Source of the DNA: Clostridia bacterium
GTDB lineage: Bacteria; Bacillota; Clostridia; Oscillospirales; Acutalibacteraceae
Assembly (NCBI GenBank): GCA_030528905.1
Contig: JAUMXZ010000001.1
Span: 1 to 59,116 of the forward strand
DNA: 59,116 nt
Reading direction: 5' to 3'
In this document: piece by piece, positions 14,983 through 56,427 of the stretch
How the letters are laid out: each line of letters starts with the position of its first letter
Position numbering within the stretch: position 1 is the first letter of the stretch
The notes under the pieces: generated by a model
Seen by the model: only the letters and a program-made list of their open reading frames with translations
Told to the model about the DNA's origin: nothing
The model's database searches: none
Translations under genes and position numbers: made by a program

Positions 14983-15309
14983 ATGAGCGGAGAACTTGAA
15001 ATTTTATATGAAACGATAAAAAAGAGAAAAGAGGAAAAACAAGAAGGGTCATATACCTGCTATCTGTTTGAACAGGGACTTGATAAAATACTGAAAAAAT
15101 GCGGCGAAGAGTGCAGCGAAACAATTATAGCCGCAAAAAACAACGATAATAAGGAAACAGTGTTTGAAATTTCTGACTTGATTTATCACCTTACAGTATT
15201 GATGGTTAACCAAGGTATAGATATAAAAGATGTAATGAAAGAGCTTGAAAAAAGAAGCGGAAAAACCGGCAACTTAAAGAAATTTCATAAAGTAGATAAA
15301 AACACTTAG
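14983..15309 (+). CDS. hisE: Phosphoribosyl-ATP pyrophosphatase
   Basis: 108 aa with SYTCYLFEQGLDKILKKCGEECSETIIAAK and EISDLIYHLTVLM, the canonical HisE pattern. Confidence 0.9.
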   Translation: MSGELEILYETIKKRKEEKQEGSYTCYLFEQGLDKILKKCGEECSETIIAAKNNDNKETVFEISDLIYHLTVLMVNQGIDIKDVMKELEKRSGKTGNLKKFHKVDKNT

Positions 15310-32925: not shown

Positions 32926-33873
32926 ATGTTAGAGATAGAGAAGCCAAATATTACTACAGAAAAGCTGTCTACCGATGGCAAGTACGGAAGATTTGTAATT
33001 GAACCTCTTGAAAGAGGCTTTGGAGCAACATTGGGAAATAGCTTAAGAAGAGTTTTGCTTTCTTCTTTGCCGGGAGTTGCCGTAACATCAATAAAAATTG
33101 ATGGAGTATTACACGAGTTTTCAACTATTCCCGGAGTTAAAGAGGATGTTACTCAAATTGTGTTAAATATAAAAGGACTTACCGCAAAGCTTGAAAATAA
33201 TGAGCCTAAAACAGTAAGAATAGATGCGGTAGGACCGGGAGTTGTTACAGCTGCAGATATACAGTGTGACAGCGAAGTGTGTATATTAAATGAGGATATG
33301 CACATAGCAACATTGGCTGATGACGGAGAACTCTCAATGGAGATAACTCTGGACAGAGGTAGAGGGTATGTTCCGGCGGAAAAGAATAAACAGCTTATGG
33401 AGGAGAATATAATAGGAGTCTTGCCAATAGACTCAATTTATACCCCGGTGCTGAAAGTAAACTTTTTCGTGGAGAATACGCGTGTAGGTCAAATTACCGA
33501 TTTTGATAAGCTTACAATAGATATTTGGACAAATGGCGTTATAAATGCACAGGAAGCAGTTTCCTATGGTGCAAAAATTTTGATAGAACATTTCTCATTG
33601 TTTGCAAACCTTTCACAAGAAGATTTCGGAACAGAAATAATGGTAGAAAGAGAAGAGCAAAGCAAGGGACTTCTTGATGTAACTATCGAAGAATTGGATC
33701 TCTCTGTAAGATCATTTAACTGTCTGAAACGAGCAGGTATAGATACTATAGAAGATCTTATAGCGAAAACAGAGGGAGATATGATGAGAGTCAGAAACTT
33801 AGGTCGTAAATCTCTTGAAGAAGTTCAGAATAAGCTTAAAGAATTAGGATTTGAGCTAAAAGAAGAAGAATAG
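32926..33873 (+). CDS. rpoA: DNA-directed RNA polymerase subunit alpha
   Basis: [30 protein letters not shown], with the C-terminal domain [17 protein letters not shown]. Confidence 0.98.
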
Positions 33874-33901
33874 AGAAAAAATAGGGTAAGGAGTGAAATA
33901 A

Positions 33902-34291
33902 ATGGCCGTAAGAAGAAAGCTTGGAAGAGATGCAGCTCATAGAACTGCAATGCTCAGAGCATTGGTAACATTCCTTTTGGAAAACGGAAAGATCGAAACA
34001 ACATTACCAAGAGCAAAAGAGGTAAGAGGACTTGCAGAAAAAATGATAACAATGGCAAAAGTAAATAATCTGCACAATAAACGTTTAGCTCTTTCTTTCA
34101 TTACAAAAGAGGCTGTTGTTAAAGATTTGTTTGATACAATAGCACCTAAATATGCGGACATTAACGGTGGATATACAAGAATTACCAAATTAGGACCTCG
34201 CAGAGGAGATGCTGCTGAAATGGCTATTCTTGAGTTGATTGATGTGAAATCCGATGCACCAGAAGCAGAGGATAAAAAAAGCAATAAATAA
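33902..34291 (+). CDS. rplQ: 50S ribosomal protein L17
   Basis: [36 protein letters not shown]...[15 protein letters not shown]. Confidence 0.98.
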
Positions 34292-34318
34292 GAAAAAGCT
34301 GAATGCTTTTAAAATATA

Positions 34319-34354
34319 GGGTATACGGATTTTTCTGTATGCCCTTTTGTTTTA
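34319..34354 (+). terminator. Rho-independent terminator after rplQ
   Basis: GGGTATAC (34319-34326) pairs with GTATGCCC (34337-34344). TTTTgTTTT follows. Confidence 0.75.
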
Positions 34355-34384
34355 TCATTTAATCGATTTGAAAGGAAAATTTTT

Positions 34385-35545
34385 ATGAATTATAATGAGG
34401 AAGCCTTAAAATTACACGAAGAAAAAAAAGGTAAAATTGAAGTATGTTCTAAAATAAAACTTGAGAATAAAGATGATTTAAGTATCGCATATACACCGGG
34501 AGTAGCAAAACCCTGCAGATGTATAGCAGAAAATCAAGATGATGTATATAAATATACGGCAAAGGGGAATTTAGTAGCAGTAGTATCAGACGGAACAGCG
34601 GTCTTAGGACTTGGAGATATAGGCCCAAAGGCTGCAATGCCGGTAATGGAAGGAAAGTCAATACTCTTTAAGGAATTTGCAAATATAGATGCGTTTCCAA
34701 TCTGCCTTGATACAAAAGATACAGAGGAAATTATAAAAACAGTTAAATACTTAGCTCCGACTTTTGGCGGCATAAATCTTGAGGATATAGCAGCTCCGCG
34801 TTGTTTTGAAATAGAGGAAAGATTAAAAAAAGAACTCGATATCCCGGTTTTCCACGACGACCAGCACGGAACAGCAATAGTCGTCTTAGCTGGACTTATA
34901 AATGCTGTAAAACTTGTGGGCAAGAAATGGGAAGATTTAACTGCAGTAATAAACGGAGCAGGAGCAGCAGGTATAGCAATTTGCAAACTTCTTATGGATT
35001 ACGGAATAGGTAATGTGATACTCTTAGACAGAAAAGGCAGCCTTGTGCCGGGAAGAGAAGCGATGAATCCGGCAAAAGAAGAAATTGCAAAAGTAACTAA
35101 TAAAAACAGGGAGTCAGGCGTACTTTCAGAAATCGTAAAGGGTAAGGATATATTTATAGGAGTGTCTTCAGCGAATGTTCTGACAAAGGATATGGTGAAG
35201 ACTATGGCAGACGACAGCATAATTTTTGCTATGGCAAACCCTGTTCCGGAGATTATGCCGGAAGATGCAAAAGAAGCCGGAGCAAGAATAATAGCTACAG
35301 GCCGTTCTGATTATGCAAATCAGATAAATAATGTTTTAGTGTTCCCCGGAATATTCAGAGGAGCATTGGACTCAAGAGCTAAAGCTATAACGCAGGAAAT
35401 GAAAATCGCAGCAGCAAAAGCTATAGCAAATATAATACAGGAAGATGAAATATCAGAAGAATATATAGTACCTAACCCACTTGATAAACGAGTAGCTAAA
35501 ATGGTATCAAAAGCAGTGTATGAAATAGGAATTACACAGAGGTAA
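34385..35545 (+). CDS. NAD(P)-dependent malic enzyme (short form)
   Basis: YTPGVA, VVSDGTAVLGLGDIGP, FGGINLEDI, FHDDQHGTA, NGAGAAG and MANPVPEI motifs. Confidence 0.92.
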   Translation: MNYNEEALKLHEEKKGKIEVCSKIKLENKDDLSIAYTPGVAKPCRCIAENQDDVYKYTAKGNLVAVVSDGTAVLGLGDIGPKAAMPVMEGKSILFKEFANIDAFPICLDTKDTEEIIKTVKYLAPTFGGINLEDIAAPRCFEIEERLKKELDIPVFHDDQHGTAIVVLAGLINAVKLVGKKWEDLTAVINGAGAAGIAICKLLMDYGIGNVILLDRKGSLVPGREAMNPAKEEIAKVTNKNRESGVLSEIVKGKDIFIGVSSANVLTKDMVKTMADDSIIFAMANPVPEIMPEDAKEAGARIIATGRSDYANQINNVLVFPGIFRGALDSRAKAITQEMKIAAAKAIANIIQEDEISEEYIVPNPLDKRVAKMVSKAVYEIGITQR

Positions 35546-35567
35546 AATGAAATAAATGTAAAGTAAA

Positions 35568-35602
35568 ACGGCAGCAGTAATTATTACTTGCTGCCGTTTT
35601 TG
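35568..35602 (+). terminator. Rho-independent terminator after malic enzyme gene
   Basis: AACGGCAGCAGTAAT pairs with ATTACTTGCTGCCGTT (one bulge). TTTTT follows. Confidence 0.85.
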
Positions 35603-35628
35603 ATGTGCTTAATTCCTAATAAAAACTT

Positions 35629-35646
35629 TGCAAAATTATTTGCAAT
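35629..35646. promoter_or_regulatory. 18-bp palindromic operator candidate (7-4-7)
   Basis: TTGCAAA-ATTA-TTTGCAA with perfect 7-bp arms, covering the -35 hexamer and the upstream part of the spacer. Confidence 0.45.
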
Positions 35647-35657
35647 ATGGTACTATA
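35629..35657 (+). promoter_or_regulatory. Candidate sigma-A promoter of the hydrogenase-sensor operon
   Basis: TTGCAA (35629-35634), 17-nt spacer, extended -10 TGgTACTAT (35649-35657). About 40 nt upstream of the DRTGG gene. Confidence 0.5.
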
Positions 35658-35698
35658 ATATGTGTTGAAAAATAAATTTTATAGCGGAGGTTTTTAGA

Positions 35699-36049
35699 AT
35701 GACGGTACGAGAAATTGCTGAAATTCTTCACGCAGAGATCATTTTTGAGGGAGATCTTGATGCAGAAGTAAAAAATGCGTGTGGCTGTGACTTAATGAGT
35801 GATGTGTTAGCGTTTGTAAAAGAACAATCTGTTTTACTGACAGGACTTCTTAATCCGCAGGTTATCAGAACAGCTGAAATGATGGATATGCATTGTGTAA
35901 TATTCGTCAGAGGGAAAACAGTAGCACCTAATATTGTAGCATTGGCAAAACAAATGGGTATAACAGTATTATCAACAAGCTTACGCTTGTTTACAGCCTG
36001 CGGCAAACTTTATCAGGCCGGGCTGCAAGGGGGTTATGAAAACGAATGA
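35699..36049 (+). CDS. DRTGG domain protein
   Basis: 116 aa. ACGCDLMSDVLAFV...VLLTGLLNPQVIRTAEMMD...IFVRGK matches the DRTGG-domain pattern. GGAGG SD. Confidence 0.7.
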   Translation: MTVREIAEILHAEIIFEGDLDAEVKNACGCDLMSDVLAFVKEQSVLLTGLLNPQVIRTAEMMDMHCVIFVRGKTVAPNIVALAKQMGITVLSTSLRLFTACGKLYQAGLQGGYENE

Positions 36050-36470
36050 TTCTTTAAAGTTGCACTACGAGGTGTCCGGAGATGACTTTATTTCAGCCGG
36101 TATAGCATCAAGTCGTGTAAAGAATAAACTAAAACAAATAGGCTACCCCCCTATTGCTATAAGAAAAGTTGCGGTTGCGATGTATGAAGCGGAAATAAAT
36201 ATGGTAATACACGCAAACGGAGGAACTATAGATGTAGATATAAATTCGGAAAGAATAAAGGTTATACTAAAAGATATAGGTCCCGGTATTCCGGATATAG
36301 AAAAGGCAATGCAGGAGGGATTTTCAACAGCTACAGACGAAATAAGAGAGTTAGGCTTCGGTGCCGGTATGGGACTTCCTAACATAAAATCTTATACTGA
36401 TGAGTTGAAAATTGATACAGTATTAGGTCAAGGTACGACCATAGAAATAACGGTATACTGTAAAAGTTAA
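36036..36470 (+). CDS. Anti-sigma-factor-type Ser/Thr protein kinase (HATPase_c, SpoIIAB/RsbW-like)
   Basis: N-box EAEINMVIHAN, G1 DIGPGIPD, G2 GFGAGMGLPN. 144 aa. Overlaps the upstream gene by 14 nt. Confidence 0.75.
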   Translation: MKTNDSLKLHYEVSGDDFISAGIASSRVKNKLKQIGYPPIAIRKVAVAMYEAEINMVIHANGGTIDVDINSERIKVILKDIGPGIPDIEKAMQEGFSTATDEIRELGFGAGMGLPNIKSYTDELKIDTVLGQGTTIEITVYCKS

Positions 36471-36493
36471 TAGTAAAATGGGAGTTGAAAAAA

Positions 36494-37804
36494 ATGACTA
36501 AATTTTTCCATTCCGTTATGTTAGAAAAAAATAAATGTGTTGGGTGTACAAACTGTGTTAAACGTTGTCCGACTCAAGCAATAAGAGTAAGAAATGGAAA
36601 AGCAGTTATACATTCAAAAAGATGTATTGACTGTGGCGAATGTATAAGAGTGTGTCCGCATAAAGCTAAAAAAGCAGCAACTAAAAAGATATCAATAATA
36701 AAAGATTTTGAATATACCGTTGCAATTCCAGACCCTTCGCTTTTTGGACAATTTAATAATTTAAAAGATATAAATGTGGTACTTACAGCAATTAAAAAAT
36801 TAGGTTTTAATTTTGTGTATGAGGCTTCAAGAGGAGCAGAATTGATAATGGATTCAATAAAAAAGCTCCTTGAGGAAAACAGGATAAGAACTCCTATTAT
36901 AAGCTCAGCTTGTCCTGCTATAGTAAGACTTATAAGACTTAGGTTTCCTGATTTATGCGATAATGTTCTTGAACTTGAAGCGCCGATGGAAGTAACAGCA
37001 AAGCTTGCAAAGGATGAGATTTCAGAAAAATATGGGATACCATTTGAGAAAATAAAGGCAGTCTTTATAGCACCTTGTCCTGCTAAAGTCAGCGCTGTGG
37101 CAGCACCGCTTGCAAAAGATAAATCTTGGGTGGATGCGGTTATTTCAATAGGCGATGTATATCCACTTTTGATAAGCGAGATGTCAAAGCTTTCAAAAGA
37201 TGATATAGAAGATATAGCAAAGTCCGGCTCTGAAGGTATCGGCTGGGGGGTAAGCTCAGCAGCCGCTCGTACATTTTTTAACGAGAAATATCTTGCGGCT
37301 GACGGAATAGAAAACGCAATAAGAATACTTGAGGAGTTAGAAGAATTCAGAATAAGAGGAATAGACTTCATAGAACTCTCAGCCTGTTCAGCCGGCTGTG
37401 TGGGCGGAGTTATGTGTGTTGAGAATGCGTATGTAGCAAAGGCTAAAATACACAAGCTAATGAAGGACCTGCCGCTGTTTAAAAATAGTGTAGACGGCGA
37501 AATACCTGACTTTTTAAGATGGGAAAAGGAACTTGAGTTTGAACCTGTTTTAAAGCTGTCAGAAGATGTGGGAGAAGCGATAGCTCTTATGGACAAGATG
37601 GATAAACTGTATGAGTCGCTGCCGGGTATGGATTGCGGATCGTGCGGAGCACCAACCTGCAGAGCTTTTGCAGAAGATGTCGTAATGGGCAGAGCTAAGC
37701 AAAATAATTGTATATATATTTTAAAAGATCATATAGAATATGTCATAGATACGCTTGAAGATACTTTGAAAAAACTCAAGGGGGTTACATTTGATGACTC
37801 TTAA
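36494..37804 (+). CDS. [FeFe]-hydrogenase-like (H-domain) putative sensory iron-sulfur protein
   Basis: N-terminal 2x[4Fe-4S] ferredoxin motifs (CVGCTNCVKRCP, CIDCGECIRVCP). Modified H-cluster motifs SSACPA (36902-36919), APCPAK (37070-37087) and ELSACSAGCVGGV (37373-37411). C-terminal CGSCGAPTCRAF Fe-S motif. ATG 36494 is preferred over the ORF-track TTG 36485. Confidence 0.75.
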   Translation: MTKFFHSVMLEKNKCVGCTNCVKRCPTQAIRVRNGKAVIHSKRCIDCGECIRVCPHKAKKAATKKISIIKDFEYTVAIPDPSLFGQFNNLKDINVVLTAIKKLGFNFVYEASRGAELIMDSIKKLLEENRIRTPIISSACPAIVRLIRLRFPDLCDNVLELEAPMEVTAKLAKDEISEKYGIPFEKIKAVFIAPCPAKVSAVAAPLAKDKSWVDAVISIGDVYPLLISEMSKLSKDDIEDIAKSGSEGIGWGVSSAAARTFFNEKYLAADGIENAIRILEELEEFRIRGIDFIELSACSAGCVGGVMCVENAYVAKAKIHKLMKDLPLFKNSVDGEIPDFLRWEKELEFEPVLKLSEDVGEAIALMDKMDKLYESLPGMDCGSCGAPTCRAFAEDVVMGRAKQNNCIYILKDHIEYVIDTLEDTLKKLKGVTFDDS

Positions 37805-38129
37805 TGATATAAAAGAAAAATTATCACTTGAAGTAATAGCAGGAGAAGATGGCCTGTCAAATGAAGTAAGCGGCTGTTATATTGGGGACTTACTAAGCTG
37901 GGTGCTGGGAAAGGCAAACTCAGGCGATGTTTTAGTAAGCGTTATGGGAAATTCAAATGCAGTAGCAGTCTGTTCAATGATAGATTTAGCGGGATTGATA
38001 TTAACAGAGAATTCACCGCTTGATGAAGATGCAAGAAAAAAAGCCGATGCATTTTCAATACCGGTTCTGACAACACCGCTTAATCATTACCAATTTGCAA
38101 ATGCTTTTTCAAAAATTTTCAATCAATAA
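37794..38129 (+). CDS. DRTGG domain protein (second copy)
   Basis: 111 aa, with the same overall pattern as 35699-36049 (GCYIGDLLSWVL...VLVSVMGNSNAV...LILTEN). Overlaps the upstream stop. TTG 37791 is an alternative start. Confidence 0.6.
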   Translation: MTLNDIKEKLSLEVIAGEDGLSNEVSGCYIGDLLSWVLGKANSGDVLVSVMGNSNAVAVCSMIDLAGLILTENSPLDEDARKKADAFSIPVLTTPLNHYQFANAFSKIFNQ

Positions 38130-38180
38130 GCTGATGATATCAAGGTTTTAATTTAAAAAGTTTATAAAATTGGTGGTAAT

Positions 38181-39173
38181 ATGGAAAAAAGTTATGTGTT
38201 GGATTGTGTTATGGGGTTTATAACGGGAGATTGCTTCGGGGCACAGCTTGACGGAGTGGATGTAAGAAAAACAGGAACAGGCCCGATTTATAAGCCGCAG
38301 GAGAAGAATGTTTATGGATTTCCGTTTGGAACTTTTACATCTGTTTCTTCTCTTATGCTGTGTTGCGCAAAGAGCCTTGCAAATGGTGTAGACTGCGATG
38401 ATATAATGGAGAATTTTTCAAAGTGGTATACTTTTGGTTATATGAGTCCTGCTAAAAGAGCTTTTGCTGTTGATAATGTGATATTAAGGTCAATTATAAA
38501 TTACAAAAAGGGTATTCGTCCGGCTGTAGAATGTGGAAAGACTAATGATTATGACAGTATAAACTCCGTTTTAAACTATATTTTACCGCTTGCCTTTGTA
38601 GTAAAAGATCTGTCGCAAAAGGATAAATTTGATACTATAAAGGAAGTCTGCAGGCTTACAAGCAGCAAAAAAGATTCACATATTGCAGCATCGCTGTTTG
38701 TGTTGTTTATCATAAACCTGCTTGAAAATAGAGATAAAAATAAAGTAAAAATCTTTAACGATACGCTAAAAGAGATATATATGTATTTTTTAAAAGATGA
38801 GGAGTATAAATACAGTTTATCTAAATGCGCAAAAATATTTTATGCAGCGGTAGAAAACAAGAACAAAGATATACTATATGAATTAGATACGCTAAGAGAC
38901 GCACTTGAAGTGGCGCTTAAATCCTTTTTTGAGCGTGATGGCGCATTTTTATCTATAGTTGACTGTGCAGGTTACGGCGGAGATTCAGCCTTAGCAACGG
39001 CTCTTGTAGGAGCTATGTGTGCAGCGTACAATGATGAAGATATGGATATGATTATTGATTGGCAGGAATATATAAATAAGATTCCGGAGATAGATGAAAT
39101 TTGCAACACCATTTACAGTAAATATATAGACAAGAATGACAAGCAGAACAAAGAACAAGAGGCACAGATATGA
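38181..39173 (+). CDS. ADP-ribosylglycohydrolase-fold protein with degenerate metal-binding motifs
   Basis: N-terminal GFITGDCFG (GDALG-like). GTFTSVSSL occupies the place of GxxTDDTxM, and GGDSALATALVGAM the place of GGDxDTxxAxxGA. The stop overlaps the next gene's ATG (ATGA). Confidence 0.6.
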   Translation: MEKSYVLDCVMGFITGDCFGAQLDGVDVRKTGTGPIYKPQEKNVYGFPFGTFTSVSSLMLCCAKSLANGVDCDDIMENFSKWYTFGYMSPAKRAFAVDNVILRSIINYKKGIRPAVECGKTNDYDSINSVLNYILPLAFVVKDLSQKDKFDTIKEVCRLTSSKKDSHIAASLFVLFIINLLENRDKNKVKIFNDTLKEIYMYFLKDEEYKYSLSKCAKIFYAAVENKNKDILYELDTLRDALEVALKSFFERDGAFLSIVDCAGYGGDSALATALVGAMCAAYNDEDMDMIIDWQEYINKIPEIDEICNTIYSKYIDKNDKQNKEQEAQI

Positions 39174-39892
39174 AGCTTTTTTACGATTTTCATATACATT
39201 CAGCACTTTCTCCGTGTGCAGAAAATGATATGACACCGAGCAATATTATAAATATGTCAATTATAAATGAACTTGATGTGATAGCCTTAACAGACCATAA
39301 TTGTTCTAAGAACTGTAAAACACTTATGAATCTTGGCAGAGAAAACGATATTCTTGTAATTGCGGGAATGGAGCTTACAACACAGGAAGAAGTACATATG
39401 GTTATGCTGTTTAAAGAGTTATATTCAGCCGAAAAATTTTCAGAATTTGTACAAAGCAGAATAATGAAAGTTCCAAACAGACCTGAAATTTTCGGAGATC
39501 AGCTGATAATGGACGAAAAAGACAACATAATCGGAGTACAGGAAAACTGGCTTGTGCCGGCAACAGATATATCAATAGACAAAGCTTATGATTTAGCCAA
39601 AGAATATGACGCAGCAATATTCCCGGCACATATCAACAGGGCTTCCCACAGTATTATATCAAACCTTGGTGTGTTTCCTGATCAGCCTGATTTTAGCTGT
39701 GTCGAGGTGAGTAAAACAGCAGACGTAAACAGCTTGATAAAAAGTTATCCGCTGCTTTCAAAAAAGTTAATCCTGCACGACTCTGATGCTCATAGATTAG
39801 AAGATATGCTACTTGATTTTCATAGTATAGAAGTTGAAGAAAAAAATGAAAAATCTGTTATAGATGCTATAAACAGGGGCCTTGGTTTGTAA
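39170..39892 (+). CDS. PHP-domain metal-dependent phosphoesterase
   Basis: FYDFHIHSALSPCA, IALTDHN, GMELT, PAHINR and LHDSDAH are PHP motif contexts. Confidence 0.8.
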   Translation: MKLFYDFHIHSALSPCAENDMTPSNIINMSIINELDVIALTDHNCSKNCKTLMNLGRENDILVIAGMELTTQEEVHMVMLFKELYSAEKFSEFVQSRIMKVPNRPEIFGDQLIMDEKDNIIGVQENWLVPATDISIDKAYDLAKEYDAAIFPAHINRASHSIISNLGVFPDQPDFSCVEVSKTADVNSLIKSYPLLSKKLILHDSDAHRLEDMLLDFHSIEVEEKNEKSVIDAINRGLGL

Positions 39893-40079
39893 AGTGCAGA
39901 CGAATTTAAAAAAATGTGGGTTTATTATATTTTATTGTGGATCTTGGCGTGAATATAATGTATAATATATGTGTAAAGTAGCGGATATGTTCAATATTAA
40001 CAGTTAAATATCTTATGTGTATATTGCCTGTATTGTTATTTTACGAATTTAAAAATCCTTAATCAGAGGGGGAGAAATA

Positions 40080-40577
40080 ATGTTAAAACGTATCAGTAAG
40101 ATTGCGTTTAAGCAGACTGAAGAACAAAAAAAAGAACTTTTAGATTACATCAATGCCCAAAAAGGTAAGCCGGGAGCTTTGATGCCGATTATGCAAAAAG
40201 CTCAGGATATTTATGGATATTTACCGGAAGAAGTACAGCGTATAATAGCTGATGAGTTAGGGATATCAACAGAGGAAGTTTTTGGCGTATCAACTTTCTA
40301 TTCCCAATTTGCACTTTCTCCAAAGGGTAAGTATAATATCTCAATTTGCCTTGGTACAGCTTGTTATGTAAAAGGCTCAGGAGATATTTTAAATAAAGTC
40401 CAGGAAATCTTGAAAATTATGCCGGAAGAATGTAGTGAAGACGGCCAATTCTCACTCACAGCCTGCCGCTGCGTGGGAGCTTGTGGTCTTGCTCCGGTCT
40501 TGATGGTTAATGACGAAGTTTATGGACGCTTAACAGTAAATGATGTTGAGGGTATTTTAAATAAATATAAGAATTAG
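40080..40577 (+). CDS. hydC: NuoE-like [2Fe-2S] subunit of NAD(H)-dependent [FeFe] hydrogenase
   Basis: ALMPIMQKAQDIYGYL...ISICLGTACYVKG...LTACRCVGACGLAPV. GGGGGAG SD. Confidence 0.9.
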   Translation: MLKRISKIAFKQTEEQKKELLDYINAQKGKPGALMPIMQKAQDIYGYLPEEVQRIIADELGISTEEVFGVSTFYSQFALSPKGKYNISICLGTACYVKGSGDILNKVQEILKIMPEECSEDGQFSLTACRCVGACGLAPVLMVNDEVYGRLTVNDVEGILNKYKN

Positions 40578-40579
40578 CT

Positions 40580-41107
40580 ATGAGAGAATTGTCGCTTAAT
40601 GTTTTAGATATCGTTCAAAACAGCATCAGCGCAAAGTCAACTATCGTTAATATTGAAGTGAACTTTTATGATAAAAATAAAATGCGAATATCAATAACCG
40701 ATGATGGCTGCGGAATGAATCAAGAACAGGTAATGAAAGTTATAGACCCATTTTACACAACAAGAAAAACAAGAAAAGTAGGCTTGGGAATACCTCTTTT
40801 TAAAATGGCAGCTGAGCTTACAGGCGGAAGTCTTGTGATACGATCGTTACCCGAAAAAGGTACACATATAAGTGCTGAGTTCGTAACAGACAGCATAGAT
40901 ATGACGCCTTTGGGAGATATGAATTCAACAATATTGCTCTTGGTTCGTTGTAATCCTGATGTAGACTTTGTTTACTCATTAACAAAAGATAATGATAAAA
41001 GAGAATTTAATACAAAAGAAATAAGAGAAATTTTGGGAGAAGTTCCTCTTGATCATCCCGATGTTCTTGAATGGATAGACGGATATCTGAAAGAACAATT
41101 TGCTTAA
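40580..41107 (+). CDS. Histidine-kinase-like ATPase (HATPase_c only) encoded inside the hydrogenase operon
   Basis: N-box LNVLDIVQNSISA, G1 DDGCGM, G2 VGLGIPLF. No DHp/His box or TM segments seen. Confidence 0.75.
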   Translation: MRELSLNVLDIVQNSISAKSTIVNIEVNFYDKNKMRISITDDGCGMNQEQVMKVIDPFYTTRKTRKVGLGIPLFKMAAELTGGSLVIRSLPEKGTHISAEFVTDSIDMTPLGDMNSTILLLVRCNPDVDFVYSLTKDNDKREFNTKEIREILGEVPLDHPDVLEWIDGYLKEQFA

Positions 41108-41141
41108 AGCAAAATATGTAAAGAAACAGGGGGTAAAATTT

Positions 41142-41510
41142 ATGAAATCATTGGAAGAACTCAGAGCAATAAGAGATAGAGCCCGTGCAGGAGTAGACTT
41201 GAGAAAAGAACATCAAAACGATGTAAGAGTCCTCGTAGGTATGGCAACCTGTGGAATAGCTGCAGGAGCAAGACCGGTACTCAACGCTTTTGTAGAGGAA
41301 ATAAACAAGAGAAATCTGAAAAATGTAGTTGTAACTCAAACAGGATGTATTGGTATATGCCAGTTTGAACCGGTAGTAGAAATAATAGAGCCGGGAAAAG
41401 AAAAAGTGACATATGTGCATATGACTCCGGAAAAGGCAGTCAGAATAGTAAACGATCACTTAGTTAATGCAAATGTTGTAGCCGAATTTACAATCGGTGC
41501 AAATTCATAA
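41142..41510 (+). CDS. Thioredoxin-like [2Fe-2S] ferredoxin
   Basis: MATCGIAAGA...TGCIGICQFEP pattern. ATG 41142 follows GGGGG; the ORF-track start 41100 overlaps the upstream gene. Confidence 0.8.
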   Translation: MKSLEELRAIRDRARAGVDLRKEHQNDVRVLVGMATCGIAAGARPVLNAFVEEINKRNLKNVVVTQTGCIGICQFEPVVEIIEPGKEKVTYVHMTPEKAVRIVNDHLVNANVVAEFTIGANS

Positions 41511-41522
41511 GGAGGAAGTTTA

Positions 41523-43310
41523 ATGTTTCGTTCCAATGTTTTGGTTTGCGGAGGTACAGGCTGTACATCCTCACACAGTGATAAAATAGCAGATAAATTA
41601 GAAGAAGAGATTAAGGCTAATGGCCTTGAGTTTGAAGTCAATGTTATAAGAACAGGCTGCTTTGGCTTGTGCGAATTAGGCCCTATAGTAGTTGTATACC
41701 CGGAGGGAAGCTTCTACAGTCGCGTTACAGTCGAGGATATTCCTGAACTGGTAAGTGAGCATCTTTTAAAAGGCCGTATCCTGAAAAGATTATTATTCCA
41801 GGAAACTTTAGCAGAAGATACAATAAAATCTTTAGCAGAAACAGACTTTTATAAAAAACAAAAGAGAATTGCACTTCATAACTGCGGCGTTATCAACCCG
41901 GAAGTTATCGAAGAATATATAGCAATGGACGGCTATCAGGCCTTAGGTAAGGTTTTAACAGAAATGACACCTGAGCAGGTAATCCAGGTTATAAAAGACT
42001 CAGGACTCAGAGGCCGTGGCGGCGGCGGATTCCCAACAGGAGTAAAATGGGAGCTTGCAGCTAAACCTCAGTCTGACCAAAAATATGTATGCTGTAATGC
42101 TGACGAAGGCGACCCGGGCGCATTTATGGACAGATCTCTGCTCGAAGGCGACCCACACTCAATCTTAGAGGCTATGGCTATAGCAGGATATGCAATCGGA
42201 GCTTCACAAGGATATATCTATGTAAGAGCTGAATATCCAATAGCTGTAAAGAGATTGGAAATAGCAATTAAACAAGCCAGAGAATATGGCTTGTTAGGCG
42301 AAAATATCTTTGATACAGGCTTTAATTTTGATATAGATTTAAGACTCGGAGCAGGCGCATTTGTTTGCGGCGAGGAAACAGCATTGTTGACTTCAATCGA
42401 GGGCAAAAGAGGTGAGCCGCATCCAAGACCACCATTCCCGGCAATCAAGGGCTTGTTCGGCAAACCAACTATCTTAAACAATGTTGAAACTTATGCTAAT
42501 ATTACCCAGATTATCTTAAACGGTGCAGATTGGTTCAAATCAATGGGTACTGAAAAATCAAAAGGTACAAAAGTTTTCGCACTCGGCGGAAAAATTAAAC
42601 ATACAGGTCTTGTTGAAGTACCAATGGGTACAACACTTCGCGAGATCGTCGAGGAAATAGGTGGAGGTATTCCAAACGGAAAGAAATTTAAGGCTGCTCA
42701 AACAGGTGGTCCTTCCGGCGGATGTATCTCATATGAAAACTTTGATATTCCGATAGATTATAATAACCTTATAGATATAGGCTCTATGATGGGCTCAGGC
42801 GGACTTATCGTAATGGATGAAACTTCCTGTATGGTAGATATCGCTAAGTTCTTCCTTGAGTTTACAGTCGATGAATCCTGCGGTAAATGTACACCTTGCC
42901 GCGTAGGTACAAAACGTTTGCTTGAAATACTCACAAAAATTACCGAAGGTAAAGCAACAATGGAAGACTTAGATAAATTAGAGTCACTTTGCTACTATAT
43001 CAAAGAAAATTCACTCTGCGGATTAGGCCAAACTGCTCCAAACCCTGTGTTGTCAACACTGAAATGCTTTAAAGATGAATATCTTGCACATATCGTTGAC
43101 AAGAAATGTCCGGCAGGTGTATGTAAATCACTGTTAAGCTATGTAATCGATCCAGCAAAATGTAAAGGTTGCTCACTCTGTTCAAGAGTTTGTCCGGTTT
43201 CCGCAATATCCGGTGAAATTAAAAAGCCCTTTGTTATTGATCAGTCAAAATGTATTAAGTGCGGTACTTGTATGGATAAATGTAAGTTTAATGCAATAGA
43301 AAAGAAATAG
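41523..43310 (+). CDS. hydB: NuoF-like flavoprotein subunit of [FeFe] hydrogenase (NAD(H)/FMN, Fe-S)
   Basis: N-terminal 2Fe-2S domain (CGGTGCTSS...TGCFGLCELGP), GLRGRGGGGFPTG, CNADEGDPGAF, SCGKCTPCR, and C-terminal 2x CxxCxxCxxxCP. Confidence 0.93.
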   Translation: MFRSNVLVCGGTGCTSSHSDKIADKLEEEIKANGLEFEVNVIRTGCFGLCELGPIVVVYPEGSFYSRVTVEDIPELVSEHLLKGRILKRLLFQETLAEDTIKSLAETDFYKKQKRIALHNCGVINPEVIEEYIAMDGYQALGKVLTEMTPEQVIQVIKDSGLRGRGGGGFPTGVKWELAAKPQSDQKYVCCNADEGDPGAFMDRSLLEGDPHSILEAMAIAGYAIGASQGYIYVRAEYPIAVKRLEIAIKQAREYGLLGENIFDTGFNFDIDLRLGAGAFVCGEETALLTSIEGKRGEPHPRPPFPAIKGLFGKPTILNNVETYANITQIILNGADWFKSMGTEKSKGTKVFALGGKIKHTGLVEVPMGTTLREIVEEIGGGIPNGKKFKAAQTGGPSGGCISYENFDIPIDYNNLIDIGSMMGSGGLIVMDETSCMVDIAKFFLEFTVDESCGKCTPCRVGTKRLLEILTKITEGKATMEDLDKLESLCYYIKENSLCGLGQTAPNPVLSTLKCFKDEYLAHIVDKKCPAGVCKSLLSYVIDPAKCKGCSLCSRVCPVSAISGEIKKPFVIDQSKCIKCGTCMDKCKFNAIEKK

Positions 43311-43399
43311 TTTAAAACTTATAAATAAGGGAAAATATAACTATAAAATTATAACAAAAGGGGGATAAAAAGCACGAGTGCTAAATTTTAAGCAGTGCT

Positions 43400-45148
43400 A
43401 TGAATGATATGGAAAAAGTTAATATAAAAATTAACGGTATGGAGTTGTCAGTTCCCGCAGGCGTTACAATTCTTGAGGCTGCAAGAATGGCAAATATAGA
43501 GATACCAACTCTTTGCTATATGAAAGAGAAAAATGAAATAGGCGCTTGCCGTATGTGTGTTGTTGAAGTGATAGGAGCAAGAGCTTTAGTCGCAGCTTGT
43601 GTTTATCCGGTCTTTGAGGGAATGCAGGTGTTTACAAATACCGAGAAAGTTCGTAAATCAAGAAAAACTACATTACAACTGTTGCTTTCAAATCACGATA
43701 AAAAATGCTTATCGTGTACAAGAAGCGGAAACTGTGAACTGCAAAAGCTGTGTAATGATTACGGAGTGGATGATGAGAACTACTTTGATGGCGAACAGCC
43801 AAAGTATGAGCTTGACTTGTCAACACCACACCTTGTAAGAGATAATAATAAATGTATTCTATGCCGCAGATGCGTTGCTGCTTGTAAAGAGCAATTTGTA
43901 GCAGTTATAGGTACAAATAACCGCGGCTTTGATTCAAGTATCGGCTGTGCATTTGAGAAAGACTTAAACGATGTACCGTGTATATCCTGCGGACAGTGTA
44001 TAGTAAACTGCCCAACAGGAGCATTAAGAGAAAAAGATCAATGCGATGAGGTTTTAGCAGCTATTGCAGATCCTGAAAAATTTGTTATAGTACAAACAGC
44101 ACCGTCAATAAAAGCAACATTAGGCGAGTGTTTCGGTATGCCGATAGGAACAAATGTAGAAGGTAAGATGGTAGCAGCATTAAAACGCCTTAACTTTGAC
44201 AAAGTGTTTAACACAGACTTCTCAGCTGACTTGACAATAGTCGAGGAAGCAAATGAGTTAGTAGAAAGAGTTCAAAACGGCGGAGTGTTACCGATGATTA
44301 CTTCGTGTTCACCGGGCTGGGTAAAATTCTGCGAGTTTTATTATCCGGAGCTAATACCACACTTATCAAGCTGTAAATCTCCACAGCAAATGGCCGGAGC
44401 AATATTTAAAACCTGGTATGCTCAAAAGAACAATATCGATCCAAAAAATATTGTATCAGTAAGTATTATGCCGTGTACAGCAAAGAAATTTGAGATAGGA
44501 AGAGATGACCAGAGTGCTGCAGGTCTTCCTGATGTTGATATAGTTCTCACAACAAGAGAGCTTGCAAGACTTATAAAACGTGCAGGATTAGACTTTGTAA
44601 ATCTTCCGGACGAGGATTTTGATCCGACATTAGGACTTGGCACAGGCGCCGGTACAATCTTCGGAGCTACAGGTGGAGTTATGGAGGCAGCATTAAGAAC
44701 TGCTGTAGATACTCTTACAGGCGAAGATGTAAAAGAAGTAGTTTACAATGAAGTAAGAGGTACTGATGGCATTAAAGAGGCAGTTTATAAGGGCGTTGGC
44801 GGCTTGGATGTAAAGGTAGCAGTTGCAAGCGGACTTAGCAATGCAAAAGTTTTAATGGATAAAATCAAAGACGGAACAGCAGATTATCAGTTTATCGAGA
44901 TTATGTGCTGTCCGGGCGGCTGCGTAAACGGCGGCGGACAACCAATTCAACCGGCAAGTGTGAGAAGCTTTACAGACCTCAAGGCTCTAAGAGCAAAGGC
45001 TCTTTATGACCAGGATGCTGCTAAAGAATTAAGAAAATCACATCAAAGCCCAATTATGGAAAGACTTTACAAAGAGTTTTTAGGTAAGCCCGGAAGCGAA
45101 AAGGCTCACCATATTCTGCACACATCCTATGTAAAGAGAGAAAAATAA
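43400..45148 (+). CDS. hydA: [FeFe] hydrogenase catalytic subunit (HydABC/group A3-type architecture)
   Basis: N-terminal 2Fe-2S, HxxxCxxCxxxxxC and 2x[4Fe-4S] motifs. H-cluster motifs TSCSPGW, MPCTAKKFE and EIMCCPGGCVNGGGQP. C-terminal small-subunit-like tail. Confidence 0.93.
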   Translation: MNDMEKVNIKINGMELSVPAGVTILEAARMANIEIPTLCYMKEKNEIGACRMCVVEVIGARALVAACVYPVFEGMQVFTNTEKVRKSRKTTLQLLLSNHDKKCLSCTRSGNCELQKLCNDYGVDDENYFDGEQPKYELDLSTPHLVRDNNKCILCRRCVAACKEQFVAVIGTNNRGFDSSIGCAFEKDLNDVPCISCGQCIVNCPTGALREKDQCDEVLAAIADPEKFVIVQTAPSIKATLGECFGMPIGTNVEGKMVAALKRLNFDKVFNTDFSADLTIVEEANELVERVQNGGVLPMITSCSPGWVKFCEFYYPELIPHLSSCKSPQQMAGAIFKTWYAQKNNIDPKNIVSVSIMPCTAKKFEIGRDDQSAAGLPDVDIVLTTRELARLIKRAGLDFVNLPDEDFDPTLGLGTGAGTIFGATGGVMEAALRTAVDTLTGEDVKEVVYNEVRGTDGIKEAVYKGVGGLDVKVAVASGLSNAKVLMDKIKDGTADYQFIEIMCCPGGCVNGGGQPIQPASVRSFTDLKALRAKALYDQDAAKELRKSHQSPIMERLYKEFLGKPGSEKAHHILHTSYVKREK

Positions 45149-45167
45149 AATATAATATATTCAAAAT

Positions 45168-45202
45168 AAGTCATTAGCTGTATAGCTGATGACTTGTTTT
45201 TT
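45168..45202 (+). terminator. Rho-independent terminator after hydA
   Basis: 12-bp stem AAGTCATTAGCT / AGCTGATGACTT with loop gtat, followed by gTTTTTT. Confidence 0.85.
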
Positions 45203-45263
45203 GCGCAAAAATAGGAATAAATGTTAAAATATTGTAACTTTTGATAAAAATGAGGTAATTTAT

Positions 45264-45292
45264 TTGACAATCAGATGTAATTATTGTATAAT
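45264..45292 (+). promoter_or_regulatory. Consensus sigma-A promoter for rpoBC
   Basis: TTGACA (45264-45269), 17-nt spacer, TATAAT (45287-45292). Confidence 0.8.
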
Positions 45293-45451
45293 AAATTGCT
45301 ATTTGTAATAATAGGGTATTATACGCTTTTTATATCCTGTGTTATAAATACTGTTAGTTAACAGTTAAGTACAGCATTGTTTAAACATTGTCTTTGTTGT
45401 GTTTGCGATAAATGCTGTACGGATAAATAAATTGAGGAGTTGATAAAGCTT

Positions 45452-48400
45452 ATGGTGAATGTCAAACCGGTAAGATTGGGCGAGACCGAAAGAATGAGTT
45501 TTTCTAAAATAAACGAAGTTTTAGATATGCCTAATTTGCTTGAAATTCAAAAAAATTCATACGATTGGTTTGTTAAAAAGGGGCTTAAAGAGGTCTTTGA
45601 TGACGTTTCCGGAATCATAGACTATACAGAAAATTTAGTTCTGGATTTTGTCGATTATAAGCTGGATTTGGATAAGCCTAATTATACCATAGCTCAATGT
45701 AAGGAACGCGATACAACATATGCAGCAGCAATAAGAGCAACTGTAAGACTGATAAACAAGGAAACCGGAGAAATTAAGGAATCAGAAGTCTTTATGGGAG
45801 ATTTCCCACTGATGACCGAAAGCGGTACATTCGTAATAAATGGAGCCGAAAGAGTTATCGTTTCACAGCTTGTTCGTTCACCCGGCGTCTACTACAAAAT
45901 GGAACACGATAAAACCGGTAAGGAAATGTTTACTGCTACTGTTATTCCTAACAGGGGAGCTTGGCTTGAGTATGAAAATGACTTAAATGATGTGTTCTAT
46001 GTAAGAATAGACAAAAACCGTAAGTTGCCTGTTACAACATTCATAAGAGCTCTCGGCCTTGGTACAGATGAGGAAATATTTGACTATTTTGGCAAGGATG
46101 AAAGAATAATAGCTACAATAGAAAAAGACCCCTGCCATACAACAGAAGAAGCACTTTTGGAAGTTTACAGAAAATTAAGACCAACAGAACCTCCAACAAT
46201 AGAAAGCTCTAAAAGTCATATCAATAACCTCTTCTTTGACCCGAGAAGATATGATATATCAAAGGTCGGAAGATATAAGTATAATAAAAAACTCGGAATA
46301 TCTTCAAGAATTGCAGGCAGAGTTTTAGCAGATGTCGTTGTCAATCCTTTAACAGGTGAGGTAATGGCTCAGGCCGGCGAAGAAGTAAGTAAAGAGCTTG
46401 CCTTGCAAATTGAAAATGCAGGAGTAAGTGTAGCTTATGTCAAGGTGGAAAACCGTGAAAAACCGGTAAAGGTAATATCTAACGGAATGGTCGATTTGGG
46501 CTGTTATGTCAATTTTGACTATGAAGAAGAATGTGAAATCAGTGAGAAAGTCAGATTTGATATCCTTTCTGAAATTCTGGAAAATGCTCAGAATGAAGAT
46601 GAGTTAAAACAGCAGCTCAAAGAAAGAAAAGATGAGCTTGTACCTAAACACATAATAATTGATGATATATTTTCATCAATCAATTACTTTAACTGTCTTG
46701 CCTGCGGAGTCGGCGAAAAAGATGATATTGACCATTTAGGCAATAGAAGAATAAGATCCGTAGGAGAACTTTTACAAAATCAGTTCAGAATAGGATTTGC
46801 AAGACTTGAAAGAGTAATAAAAGAAAGAATGACCCTTCAGGCTAAAGATCTCGAAATTTTAACTCCGCAATCACTGATAAATATAAGACCTGTAGTTTCA
46901 GCAATCAGAGAATTTTTTGGTTCATCACCGCTTTCACAGTTTATGGATCAGAATAATCCGCTTGCAGAACTTACACATAAAAGAAGACTTTCATCCTTAG
47001 GACCCGGAGGCTTGACAAGAGACAGAGCGGGCTTTGAAGTTCGTGACGTACACTACACACACTATGGCCGAATGTGTCCTATAGAAACCCCTGAAGGACC
47101 AAACATCGGACTTATTTCTTACCTTGCAACATACGCAAAAATAAACAAGTACGGCTTTATTGAGGCACCGTTTAGAAAAGTAAATAAAATATACGACGAG
47201 AACAATAAAGTTATTGATGCAGTAGTGTCTGATGAGGTCGTATATATGACAGCGGATGTAGAAGACGATTTCATAGTAATTCAGGCTAACGAACCATTGG
47301 ATGAAAATAACAGATTTAAAAACACAAAGGTAAACGGCAGATATAAAGATGAGTTTGTTGAAGTCGAAAGAGAAAAAGCAGATTATATGGACGTAGTGCC
47401 GAAAATGGTTCTATCAGTCGCTACATCTATGATCCCATTCCTTGAAAACGATGACGCAAACAGAGCATTGATGGGAGCGAACATGCAAAGACAGGCAGTG
47501 CCGCTCTTGACAACAGAAGCTCCGATAGTAGCAACAGGTATGGAATATAAAGCAGGAGTTGACTCCGGAGTATGTATAGTTGCTAAAACCGATGGTGTTG
47601 TAAAATATGTATCTGCTGACAGAATTATATTAGACACGCAAAATGGTGAAGCAGTTTATAATGTAACTAAGTTTTTGCGTTCAAACCAGGGAACTTGTAT
47701 CAATCAGAATCCCATTGTCAAAGTTGGCCAGGAAGTGAAAAAAGGCGATGTTATAGCTGATGGCCCGGCAACAGATAAGGGTGAGATAAGTCTTGGAAAG
47801 AATGCACTTATCGGCTTTATGACCTGGGAAGGTTATAACTATGAAGATGCTGTTTTACTCAGTGAGAAAATAGTAAGAGATGATGTATATACATCAATTC
47901 ATATAGAAGAGTATGAAACAGAAGCAAGAGATACAAAATTAGGACCTGAGGATATAACAAGAGATATACCAAATGTGGGTGAAGACTTGCTCAAGGACTT
48001 AGACGAAGAAGGTATAATAAGAGTAGGTGCAGAGGTTTCCGCAGGAGATATTCTTGTAGGTAAGGTTACACCTAAGGGAGAATCTGAGCTTACAGCTGAA
48101 GAAAGACTGCTTCGTGCAATCTTTGGAGAAAAGGCAAGAGAAGTAAGAGATACTTCGTTAAGAGTGCCGCACGGAGAATATGGAATCATAGTAGATGTAA
48201 AAGTATTCACCCGAAAAGATCACAAAGAGGAGTTAGCACCGGGAGTAAACAAGGTTGTAAGATGTTATGTCGCTCAGAAACGCAAGATCTCTGTAGGAGA
48301 TAAAATGGCAGGTCGTCACGGAAATAAAGGTGTTGTATCAAGAATATTACCTGTTGAAGATATGCCGTTTTTACCAGACGGTACACCGCTTGATATAGTG

Positions 48401-49270
48401 CTCAACCCATTGGGTGTTCCATCCCGTATGAATATCGGACAGGTTTTGGAAGTTCACCTTGGATATGCAGCTAAAACACTTGGCTGGAAAATAATGACTC
48501 CTGTTTTTGATGGAGCAAGTGAGGAAGATATATTTGAGTGCTTCAGACAGGCAGGACTTGATGACAGCGGTAAGATATGGCTAAAAGACGGCAGAACAGG
48601 TGAATATTTTGATAACCCTGTAACCGTAGGATATATGTATTATCTGAAACTGCACCACCTTGTAGACGATAAGATTCACGCCCGTTCAACAGGACCCTAT
48701 TCTCTTGTTACACAGCAGCCATTAGGCGGAAAAGCTCAATTTGGCGGTCAGCGTTTCGGAGAAATGGAAGTATGGGCACTTGAAGCTTATGGTGCAGCAT
48801 ATACATTACAAGAAATATTAACCGTAAAATCAGACGATATTGTCGGAAGAGTCAAGGCATATGAAGCTATTGTAAAGGGAGAAAATATACCAAAACCAGG
48901 CGCTCCCGAAGCATTCAGAGTATTGATAAAAGAGCTGCAGTCATTAGGTCTTGATGTCAATATATTAGATAAAAATAATGACGAGATAGACCTGAAACAG
49001 AATTTTGACGAAGATTTAGGACTACAGCCGGTTGCAGAGCCTCAGGATGAACTTGAGGAGGATTTGGAAGATGCTCAGGATGATAAGCAAGATGCTTTTG
49101 ATGCTGAATATAAAGTAGATACATTAGAGGGTTTGAGTTTAGATGAAAGTCAGGACGATAGTCAGGTTATGTATGATGAATCATCTATAGTAGCAAGCTA
49201 TGATGATCCTGAAGAGGACTTTCAAAGTGAGGATATAAATGTTTATGAACTAAATTCTGATGAAGAATAG
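45452..49270 (+). CDS. rpoB: DNA-directed RNA polymerase subunit beta
   Basis: RMSFSKI..., [40 protein letters not shown] 45452 was chosen because MVNVKPV...RMSF fits clostridial RpoB N-termini; the ORF-track TTG 45440 lies 1 nt after the GAGGAG SD. Confidence 0.97.
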
Positions 49271-49285
49271 GGAGGTTTATAATAT

Positions 49286-52200: not shown

Positions 52201-52828
52201 TGAAAGAGCATATCTTATACCGTTTGGATCACGAACCAGAGTTAAAGAAGGCGATGTGATAGAGGCCGGCGATCTGATAACAGAAGGTTATATAAACCCA
52301 CACGATGTATTAGCTATCAAGGGAGTAAAGGCTGTTCAAAACTATCTTATCCAAGAAGTACAAAGAGTTTACCGTATGCAGGGTGTTGATATCAACGATA
52401 AGCATATTGAGGTTATCGTAAGACAGATGCTCAGAAAAGTAAAAGTTGATGATGCAGGTGATACAGGCTTAACACCTGATGTTCTTACAAATAAGAGCGA
52501 TGTGGAAGAGGCAAACGAGCAAATTGAGAACAGAATCAAAGCAGGAGAGATAGATTTAAGAAAAGCAACATATATACCGGTACTTCTCGGTATTACAAAA
52601 GCTTCTCTTGCAACAGATTCATTCCTATCAGCAGCTTCATTCCAGGAGACTACAAAAGTTCTGACCGATGCATCAATCAAAGGTAAGGTCGATCCGCTGA
52701 TCGGACTTAAAGAAAATGTACTTATAGGTAAATTAGTGCCTGCAGGTACAGGTTTGGATATGTATAACAATGTAATAGTAAAAGAGAAGACTGAAACTGA
52801 AAATCTGTTTAACAGTATCAGATATTAG
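49286..52828 (+). CDS. rpoC: DNA-directed RNA polymerase subunit beta'
   Basis: Zn finger [29 protein letters not shown], and trigger-loop/bridge helix regions. Confidence 0.98.
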
Positions 52829-56304: not shown

Positions 56305-56427
56305 ATCGCTGATATCCTTTCAATATAAAAATAAAAACAAATAAAATTTACTACATTATAACATAAAAATATGTTAAAGTATATCTTGTAGAAAAAAATT
56401 TTACAATTTAATAGGGTGTGATCGGAT

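Follow-up and report, generated by a model that had tools for sequence, protein, structure and literature searches.

DraG is a dimanganese enzyme of the ADP-ribosylglycohydrolase (ARH) superfamily in which residues E28, D60 and D97 are essential (PMC8120803). In ARH3 one metal ion, MgA, is coordinated by T76, D77, D78 and D316, the other, MgB, by D314, D316 and T317; alanine substitutions showed that D77, D78, D314 and D316 are critical for activity, with D77A causing complete loss, and D314A, which removes MgB, cuts the affinity for ADP-ribose 44-fold (PMC8141533). Vertebrate ARH2 (ADPRHL1) shows no hydrolase activity, yet it is retained and biologically required (PMC9738213, PMC7390403, PMC10601310), and the immunity protein Tri1 protects partly through binding alone, by occluding the toxin (PMC8120803). 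The gene analysed here (positions 38181-39173) encodes a degenerate ARH-family protein of 330 residues in a new genomic setting, inside a cassette of genes around a putative sensory [FeFe] hydrogenase. It lies in a stretch of 59,116 nucleotides from a Clostridia bacterium (assembly GCA_030528905.1, contig JAUMXZ010000001.1), hereafter the window, to which all positions refer; features are on the forward (+) strand unless stated otherwise.

The cassette consists of five genes, coding in this order for a DRTGG-domain protein, a SpoIIAB-like ATPase, a HydS-like hydrogenase, a second DRTGG-domain protein (DRTGG2) and a PHP-family phosphoesterase; in the window the ARH gene stands between the last two. 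A comparable described case among group D (M2e) loci is that of TamHydS of Thermoanaerobacter mathranii, which has the same domain plan as the HydS-like protein and whose gene is located upstream of the genes for a multimeric group A hydrogenase, beside a histidine-kinase-like ATPase (PMC8163306). The signal route of group D HydS is stated as open, and the published descriptions of TamHydS-type systems mention neither an ARH gene nor DRTGG or PHP partners (PMC8163306, PMC13104023). A full-text literature search for DRTGG and hydrogenase gave no paper whose title and abstract pointed to this cassette.

Fold and family of the protein

The 330-residue product of the open reading frame (ORF) matched PF03747 (ADP-ribosylglycohydrolase) with an E-value of 1e-23 and a score of 84.9 bits over model positions 2-279 of 287, the gathering cut-off of the profile being 26.2 bits. 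Relatives of the protein score up to E 3e-106 against the same profile (246 bits in one listed example). The N-terminal GFITGDCFG contains G16-D17...G20. An AlphaFold2 (AF2) model built on a 150-sequence alignment was all-helical, with 17 helices, a mean pLDDT of 91.4 and a pTM of 0.92. When this model was compared with the PDB by Foldseek, all 50 of the 50 matches listed were ARH-family or ARH-containing entries. The best match was Listeria Lmo0067 (8za7_A, TM 0.83), which was also found by phmmer (E 3.5e-27); further matches were Tri1 (6dre/6drh, TM 0.70-0.73) and DraG (3o5t, 2woc), MJ1187 and ARH3 (TM ~0.7). Since the model is confident and Foldseek listed ARH entries only, the assignment of an ARH/DraG-like fold, already made in the initial annotation, is secure. 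That annotation had been drawn up from the letters alone; the ORF, its length, GFITGDCFG, TSVS (residues 53-56, 38337-38348) and GGDSALATALVGAM were all found where it had placed them.

By sequence and fold the protein belongs to the ARH superfamily and stands nearest to the Lmo0067/Tri1-like bacterial clade. Lmo0067 and Tri1, which are immunity proteins of ADP-ribosyltransferase (ART)-ARH pairs, are its best matches in both respects and share with it an all-alpha ARH core of ~300 residues. Lmo0067 and Tri1 keep the E, (S/T)DD, FDIG, NGNG..MR-type, THxH and D(T/A)D(T/S) motifs, whereas the window protein has lost them. Unlike Tre1/Tri1 and Lmo0066/Lmo0067, the gene has no adjacent ART, its neighbours being the DRTGG and PHP genes of a hydrogenase-sensor cassette and not a toxin locus. 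The N-terminal occluding extension of Tri1 is also absent, as the alignment starts from residue 4 of the window protein but from residue 66 of Tri1. With DraG the protein shares superfamily and fold, and both genes adjoin redox metalloenzyme genes. However, DraG is paired with DraT, whereas here a cognate ART, for which the initial annotation had proposed to look, was not found among the window ORFs scanned by Pfam, the small ribosomal-protein ORFs (19.9-34.3 kb) and the ORF at the 3' end not having been scanned individually. Nor is the ARH gene co-conserved with its supposed target system.

Domain fusions were noted among 50 long relatives (alignment A2, P0005-P0150). The ARH domain was fused to DUF6508 in seven and to the C-terminal domain of the RNA polymerase alpha subunit in four of them, and single fusions were seen to Macro, NADAR, a CpsB/CapC (PHP-type) phosphatase, DnaB_C and MarR. 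At locus L018 a separate DUF6508 gene lies directly 3' of the ARH gene. A functional link between ARH and PHP was considered on this basis and set aside, one ARH-PHP-type fusion in 50 being too thin.

Replacement of the metal ligands and of the cleft motifs

Sites were mapped by three independent alignments, which agreed: a phmmer alignment to Lmo0067, a MAFFT alignment that included the 149 closest relatives, and a family-profile alignment covering DraG (2woc), the DraG D97N variant (2woe), Tri1 and 2CWC. In all of them T53-S54-V55-S56 (38337-38348) falls on (T/S)-D-D-(T/S), and D268-S269-A270-L271 (38982-38993), part of GGDSALATALVGAM (residues 266-279), falls on D-T-D-T. The first segment lacks both Asp ligands of MgA. 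In the second the metal-bridging Asp (D316 of ARH3) and the following Thr (T317) are gone, and only D268, the counterpart of ARH3 D314, is kept. By the ARH3 ligand list (PMC8141533) MgA is left with T53 only and MgB with D268 only. Among the 149 relatives Asp occupies position 54 in 143, position 55 in 137 and position 270 in 134, while Thr or Ser is found at position 271 in 140. Every one of them keeps at least one of the four ligand positions (54, 55, 270 and 271); three are lost in two relatives and two in nine.

The remaining catalytic positions were compared residue by residue with DraG and ARH3. T53-S54-V55 corresponds to T59-D60-D61 of DraG and T76-D77-D78 of ARH3, and D268-S269-A270-L271 to D243-(A)-D245-T246 of DraG and D314-T315-D316-T317 of ARH3. 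D24 (38250-38252) is the equivalent of DraG E28 and ARH3 E41, a change from Glu to Asp. At this position 86% of the relatives have Glu and one of 146 has Asp in alignment A1; a second, faster alignment was less clear-cut, with 55 Glu and 21 Asp among 149. A96 (38466-38468) replaces the Asp of the FDIG motif, i.e. DraG D97, the proposed proton-transfer residue (PMC8120803), for which no ARH3 equivalent is given; the position was fixed by the profile alignment of 2woc against 2woe. Thus D24, S54 and A96 stand where DraG has E28, D60 and D97. Column 96 is Asp in 117 of 148 relatives.

Two motifs that line the cleft for ADP-ribose in the ARH3 and DraG structures, NGNGxxMR and THxH, are replaced as well. 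In the window protein the family motif N-G-N-G-x-L-M-R is replaced by S126-I-N-S-V-L-N-Y133 (38556-38579); N126, G127, G129, M132 and R133, each at least 92% conserved in the relatives, are all substituted. Similarly, T160-S-S-K163 (38658-38669) stands in place of T-H-x-H, whose histidines are 98% (H161) and 91% (H163) conserved, and none of the relatives has the residue of the window protein at either position. Over the 70 columns conserved to at least 80%, the protein and its known allele keep 25 residues, whereas the median among the relatives is 65 and none has fewer than 46.

None of the tested features of active ARHs, i.e. the binuclear metal site, the N-terminal Glu, the FDIG Asp and the NGNGxxMR and THxH motifs, was present. 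Judged from these residues, the protein can build neither metal site and is predicted to be catalytically dead by canonical criteria, like vertebrate ARH2. Because no metal site can form and the cleft motifs of active ARHs are gone, it should be neither a DraG-type eraser nor a canonical ADP-ribose binder. The substitution of the metal-site motifs had been noticed before, and no intact site appeared after proper alignment; the degeneracy had in fact been understated, as NGNGxxMR, THxH and the FDIG Asp are replaced as well. Of the readings built on it, that of an inactive enzyme agrees with the residues lost. For the fallback reading, a canonical ADP-ribose-binding module, this is not so: the loss of the cleft-lining motifs argues against it.

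Distribution of the gene among related cassettes

A word-index search of 5.8 billion clusters returned a single match to the ARH protein, 96% identical. A full HMMER search of 1.84 billion representatives clustered at 50% identity returned this same cluster and, as next-best full-length hit, a protein with E 6e-25 and 26% identity; none of the matches listed beyond its own cluster exceeded 32%. By these sequence searches the protein has no orthologue elsewhere in public protein data. The gene itself was found on three independent metagenome contigs (L001-L003), which represent the same species and show the same gene order. Its nearest ARH relatives (P0002 and P0004) had no hydrogenase context on their short contigs.

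The survey of orthologous hydrogenase clusters that the initial annotation had called for gave a uniform result, as the ARH gene was present in none of 93 related HydS/PHP loci (L004-L016 and 80 metagenome loci); absence from the related clusters was the first half of one of the outcomes that this annotation had named as refuting it. In nine GTDB genomes found via HydS the PHP gene follows directly after DRTGG2, with a gap of at most 27 nt or an overlap. Four loci found via PHP homologues have the five-gene order, without PF03747, in their Pfam gene lists. The 80 metagenome loci, which had been found with a PHP profile, gave no hit in a tblastn search with the window ARH protein and 39 canonical ARHs. 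The distance from HydS to PHP is 323-627 nt in 76 of the 79 loci holding both genes, and in these there is therefore room only for the small DRTGG gene; in the window the distance is 1368 nt. The full order DRTGG, HATPase, HydS, DRTGG, PHP was seen in 48 of the 54 loci with enough upstream sequence; homologues of the PHP protein number at least 2278 at E <= 1e-10.

Since the gene is confined to one bacterial lineage, it is a local add-on of that lineage and no general component of hydrogenase regulation. The suggestion that an ARH protein adds a DraG-like layer of control to the hydrogenase is not supported, the gene being absent from the related loci and without orthologues, and no ART having been found among the window ORFs scanned. 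As a one-lineage addition it matters little for hydrogenase regulation in general and cannot explain the signalling of group D HydS.

The three loci with deviating distances carry unrelated insertions between HydS and DRTGG2. In L069 this is an ABC exporter pair on the opposite strand (L069:1383-3877, -; PF16962, PF00005). In L099 it is a 198-residue lipoprotein-like ORF (L099:911-1507, +) with a signal-peptide/lipobox-like N-terminus, TDEIP repeats and no Pfam or NCBIfam match; DRTGG2 appears fragmented in this locus. L093 carries a 163-residue NudC-like NUDIX gene on the same strand as its neighbours (L093:1292-1783, +). Its product has an intact Nudix box, an N-terminal CxxC...CxxC motif resembling a zinc ribbon, and NAD(+) diphosphatase as best NCBIfam match (E 1.7e-19, short of the cut-off). 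Independently of ARH, it gives the cassette another accessory from NAD/ADP-ribose chemistry, which at one locus in 79 may be coincidence.

Variation between alleles and maintenance of the reading frame

At the base composition of the gene the probability that 330 codons are free of stops by chance is 6e-13, and the other five frames contain 10-32 stops. The frame is intact although about two in three of the residues conserved in the family have been replaced. Comparison with the allele of L001 showed 13 nonsynonymous and 13 synonymous differences, corresponding to a pN/pS of 0.25, which is below neutrality (p = 6e-4). The differences are unevenly distributed. Two patches are variable, and outside them there are one nonsynonymous and four synonymous changes (ratio 0.06). 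The patch at residues 154-187 has five nonsynonymous and seven synonymous changes (ratio 0.19), and the former THxH histidine positions 161 and 163 are among the sites that vary between the alleles. The second patch, residues 251-264 (38931-38972), just before the GGD loop, has seven nonsynonymous and two synonymous changes (ratio ~1.0). Positive selection on this second patch was considered and not adopted, nine changes at such a ratio being too few to part neutral from diversifying evolution.

The reading frame is thus kept as a protein, with purifying selection over most of its length, and the gene is probably not entirely a decaying remnant. GC content, GC content at third codon positions (GC3) and skew match those of the neighbouring genes, and only short chance repeats flank the gene. 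An origin by a mobile element or by recent transfer was therefore rejected as a recent event; the insertion is not recent, because the composition matches and flanking repeats are missing.

In the whole region 34385-41510 the window differs from L001 at 91 nucleotides, which come in short tracts, e.g. 34486-34630, 36809-36873, 37249-37606, 38642-38739 and 38933-38972. Such clustering is typical of recombination imports rather than of evenly spread mutation, and because the differences over this 7-kb region are arranged in short tracts they represent few independent events.

Possible roles of the protein

The fold is kept, the ligands and motifs are lost, and the frame is intact under purifying selection; for these reasons the protein is probably a lineage-restricted, catalytically dead ARH-fold pseudoenzyme, which would act through binding if it acts at all. 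With its fold kept, its catalytic residues substituted and its gene under selection it falls into the class of ARH-fold pseudoenzymes, a functional class and not an orthologous family. Vertebrate ARH2/ADPRHL1 would be the best analogy for a non-catalytic role on an enzyme scaffold: it too has the ARH fold and substituted metal motifs of the SDDT/DxDS type, and its gene is retained. The likeness does not extend to descent, as ARH2 is 47% identical to ARH1, whereas the window protein is an isolated offshoot of the bacterial Lmo0067-like clade (<=32% identity) and not an ARH2 orthologue. It also differs in having lost the NGNG and THxH motifs, and the biology of ARH2 is that of cardiac myofibril assembly. 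The protein is a natural example of a scaffold stripped of nearly all functional residues and still under selection inside a signalling operon, and may be useful as a bacterial equivalent of ARH2/ADPRHL1 in studies of pseudoenzyme evolution.

From the position of the gene (51-nt gap on the 5' side, Shine-Dalgarno-like site, ATGA overlap with PHP) it would share a transcript with the cassette genes, and its translation would be coupled to that of PHP. The most likely mode of action of its product would be non-enzymatic binding, for example as a lineage-specific accessory partner of the PHP or a DRTGG protein, reusing the protein-binding scaffold of the ARH-type immunity proteins Tri1 and Lmo0067. 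Because of the stop-start coupling, PHP is the first candidate.

Several observations weigh against the reading as a maintained pseudoenzyme. The nonsynonymous rate of the ARH gene is ~9-fold above that of the pooled neighbours (6 nonsynonymous, 58 synonymous; Fisher p = 6e-5), and the 14-residue patch 251-264 looks neutral, both of which are compatible with a gene losing constraint. The selection estimate comes from two alleles with 26 differences, and these lie in recombination-like tracts. The high confidence of the AF2 model is partly explained by the family alignment supplied to it. Sparse sampling accounts for part of the lineage restriction: the closest RpoB has 84% identity (that of [Clostridium] leptum 78%) and the closest PHP ~55%, and with a lineage so poorly sampled the insertion could be as old as a genus. 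Finally, any binding partner is a candidate by gene position only.

A more specific version of the pseudoenzyme reading, to be held tentatively, is that the dead ARH protein was recruited to the group D HydS cassette as a regulatory subunit specific to this lineage, binding and modulating PHP or sensing an NAD-derived metabolite via a re-made pocket. The NudC-like NUDIX insertion in L093 would be a weak hint that NAD/ADP-ribose chemistry touches the cassette. If true, this would be the first case of an ARH pseudoenzyme that takes part in signalling in bacteria.

Alternatively, the gene could be a passenger without a role in hydrogen sensing, for instance an inactivated gene left over from an ART-ARH toxin-immunity pair, which came to lie in the operon without its partner. 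It might have been retained because it does no harm, because PHP translation is now driven by its own translation via the ATGA overlap, or because the protein still neutralises a toxin by binding. This explanation, which has a real but minor chance of being correct, would account for the immunity proteins 8za7 and Tri1 being the closest relatives in structure and sequence, for the absence of the gene from all related cassettes examined, and for the raised nonsynonymous rate with one neutral or variable patch near the former active-site loops; moreover, the cassette does take up unrelated genes elsewhere, as in L069, L093 and L099. It is at odds with the failure to find an ART adjacent to the gene or among the other window ORFs scanned, with the missing Tri1-like N-terminal extension and with the fully ameliorated composition free of mobile-element traces. 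Most of the protein is also constrained as strongly as the neighbours (one nonsynonymous and four synonymous changes outside the patches), and the frame stayed open while roughly two thirds of the residues conserved in the family were lost.

It is unlikely that the protein is an active enzyme which uses a non-canonical mechanism or another substrate in a re-made pocket on the ARH scaffold. D17, D24, T53 and D268 remain, the gene is under purifying selection, and reviews caution that the apparent inactivity of ARH2 could reflect the model substrates used (PMC9738213). But four of the seven residues equivalent to the ARH3 metal site (T76, D77, D78, D314, D316, T317 and the near-metal E41) are replaced, namely D77, D78, D316 and T317; the counterpart of DraG D97 and the two cleft motifs are replaced too, with S, V, A, L and I as the usual substitutes; and without orthologues no conserved polar cluster can be assessed as an alternative site. 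A DraG-like reversible ADP-ribosylation switch or NAD-metabolite sensor controlling the hydrogenase or its regulators, for which the position inside a regulatory operon and the independent NUDIX gene in L093 could be cited, is very unlikely given the lost catalytic and ligand-binding residues, the lack of an ART among the ORFs scanned, the missing orthologues, the absence from 93 related loci, and the occurrence of the L093 coincidence in only one locus of 79.

The hydrogenase-sensor cassette and its surroundings

The first gene of the cassette (35699-36049) codes for a DRTGG-domain protein (PF07085), and the gene order is kept in related loci. The second (36036-36470) encodes a SpoIIAB/RsbW-like HATPase_c_2 protein, a putative Ser kinase (PF13581, PF02518), which matches TIGR01925 with E 4e-15, below the cut-off. 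The third (36485-37804) codes for the HydS-like protein, a putative sensory [FeFe] hydrogenase of the group D (M2e) type; two 4Fe-4S motifs lie in its N-terminal part, and its H-domain has SSACP instead of TSCCP and thus no proton-transfer Cys. A C-terminal Cx2Cx4Cx16C motif (PF04060) starts from residue 384, and a PAS domain is absent. By sequence these features, together with the adjoining histidine-kinase-like ATPase, place it in group D (M2e) as defined earlier (PMC8163306). DRTGG2, the fourth gene (37791-38129; PF07085), is followed by a 51-nt spacer (38130-38180) with the Shine-Dalgarno-like GGTGG (38172-38176) 4 nt 5' of the ARH start codon. At the other end the ARH stop codon TGA (39171-39173) and the PHP start codon ATG (39170-39172) overlap as ATGA (39170-39173). 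The fifth gene (39170-39892; PF02811) encodes the PHP-family phosphoesterase, in which the HxH motif is intact. The ATGA overlap and the co-directional position in the operon, with the HydS-like gene upstream and PHP followed by hydrogenase genes downstream, had been described correctly from the letters.

The composition of the cassette suggests a partner-switch-like output for HydS through a kinase and a phosphoesterase. For the question of how group D HydS signals, the five-gene cassette is a more promising lead than the ARH gene; it names concrete candidate partners.

After a gap of 187 nt the PHP gene is followed by the structural genes of a multimeric group A [FeFe] hydrogenase (40080-45148; NuoE-like, HATPase, 2Fe-2S ferredoxin, NuoF-like and HydA, identified by family matches). 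In L016 structural hydrogenase genes in the same arrangement follow the cassette. Between the NuoE-like and ferredoxin genes, in L016 as well as in the window, lies the gene of a 175-residue HATPase_c protein (40580-41107 in the window), a histidine-kinase-like ATPase with no recognisable DHp or sensor domain.

No terminator-like site was found at either boundary of the ARH gene, the sole site in the region being inside its coding sequence, and the totals from the promoter and terminator scans were not above shuffle expectation. Only two sites looked suggestive, a hairpin resembling a terminator at 35574-35594, 3' of the malic enzyme gene, and a promoter-like site (39997-40025) matching at 10 of 12 positions before the NuoE-like gene. 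An Rfam scan of 34-46 kb gave no family match, so no regulatory RNA was seen there, and PADLOC gave no defence hit for the ARH, PHP, DRTGG or HATPase genes.

The remainder of the window is core chromosome, with isoprenoid genes, polC, the his operon, the S10-spc-alpha ribosomal block, rpoA, rplQ, the malic enzyme gene, rpoB and rpoC. The hydrogenase genes lie between rpoA-rplQ-malic enzyme and rpoB-rpoC (32926-52828). In the nearest relatives (RpoB 83-84% identical) rpoB has the S10 ribosomal operon or a contig end beside it and not the hydrogenase cluster, showing that this placement is not conserved. An open frame of ~898 codons (~56420-59116, +), without an Rfam match, is cut off by the 3' end of the window. 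Directly 5' of a clear hisE gene (14983-15309) lies a 126-residue ORF (14581-14961) with a weak PRA-PH (HisE-like) match (E 1e-4), which may be a diverged duplicate.

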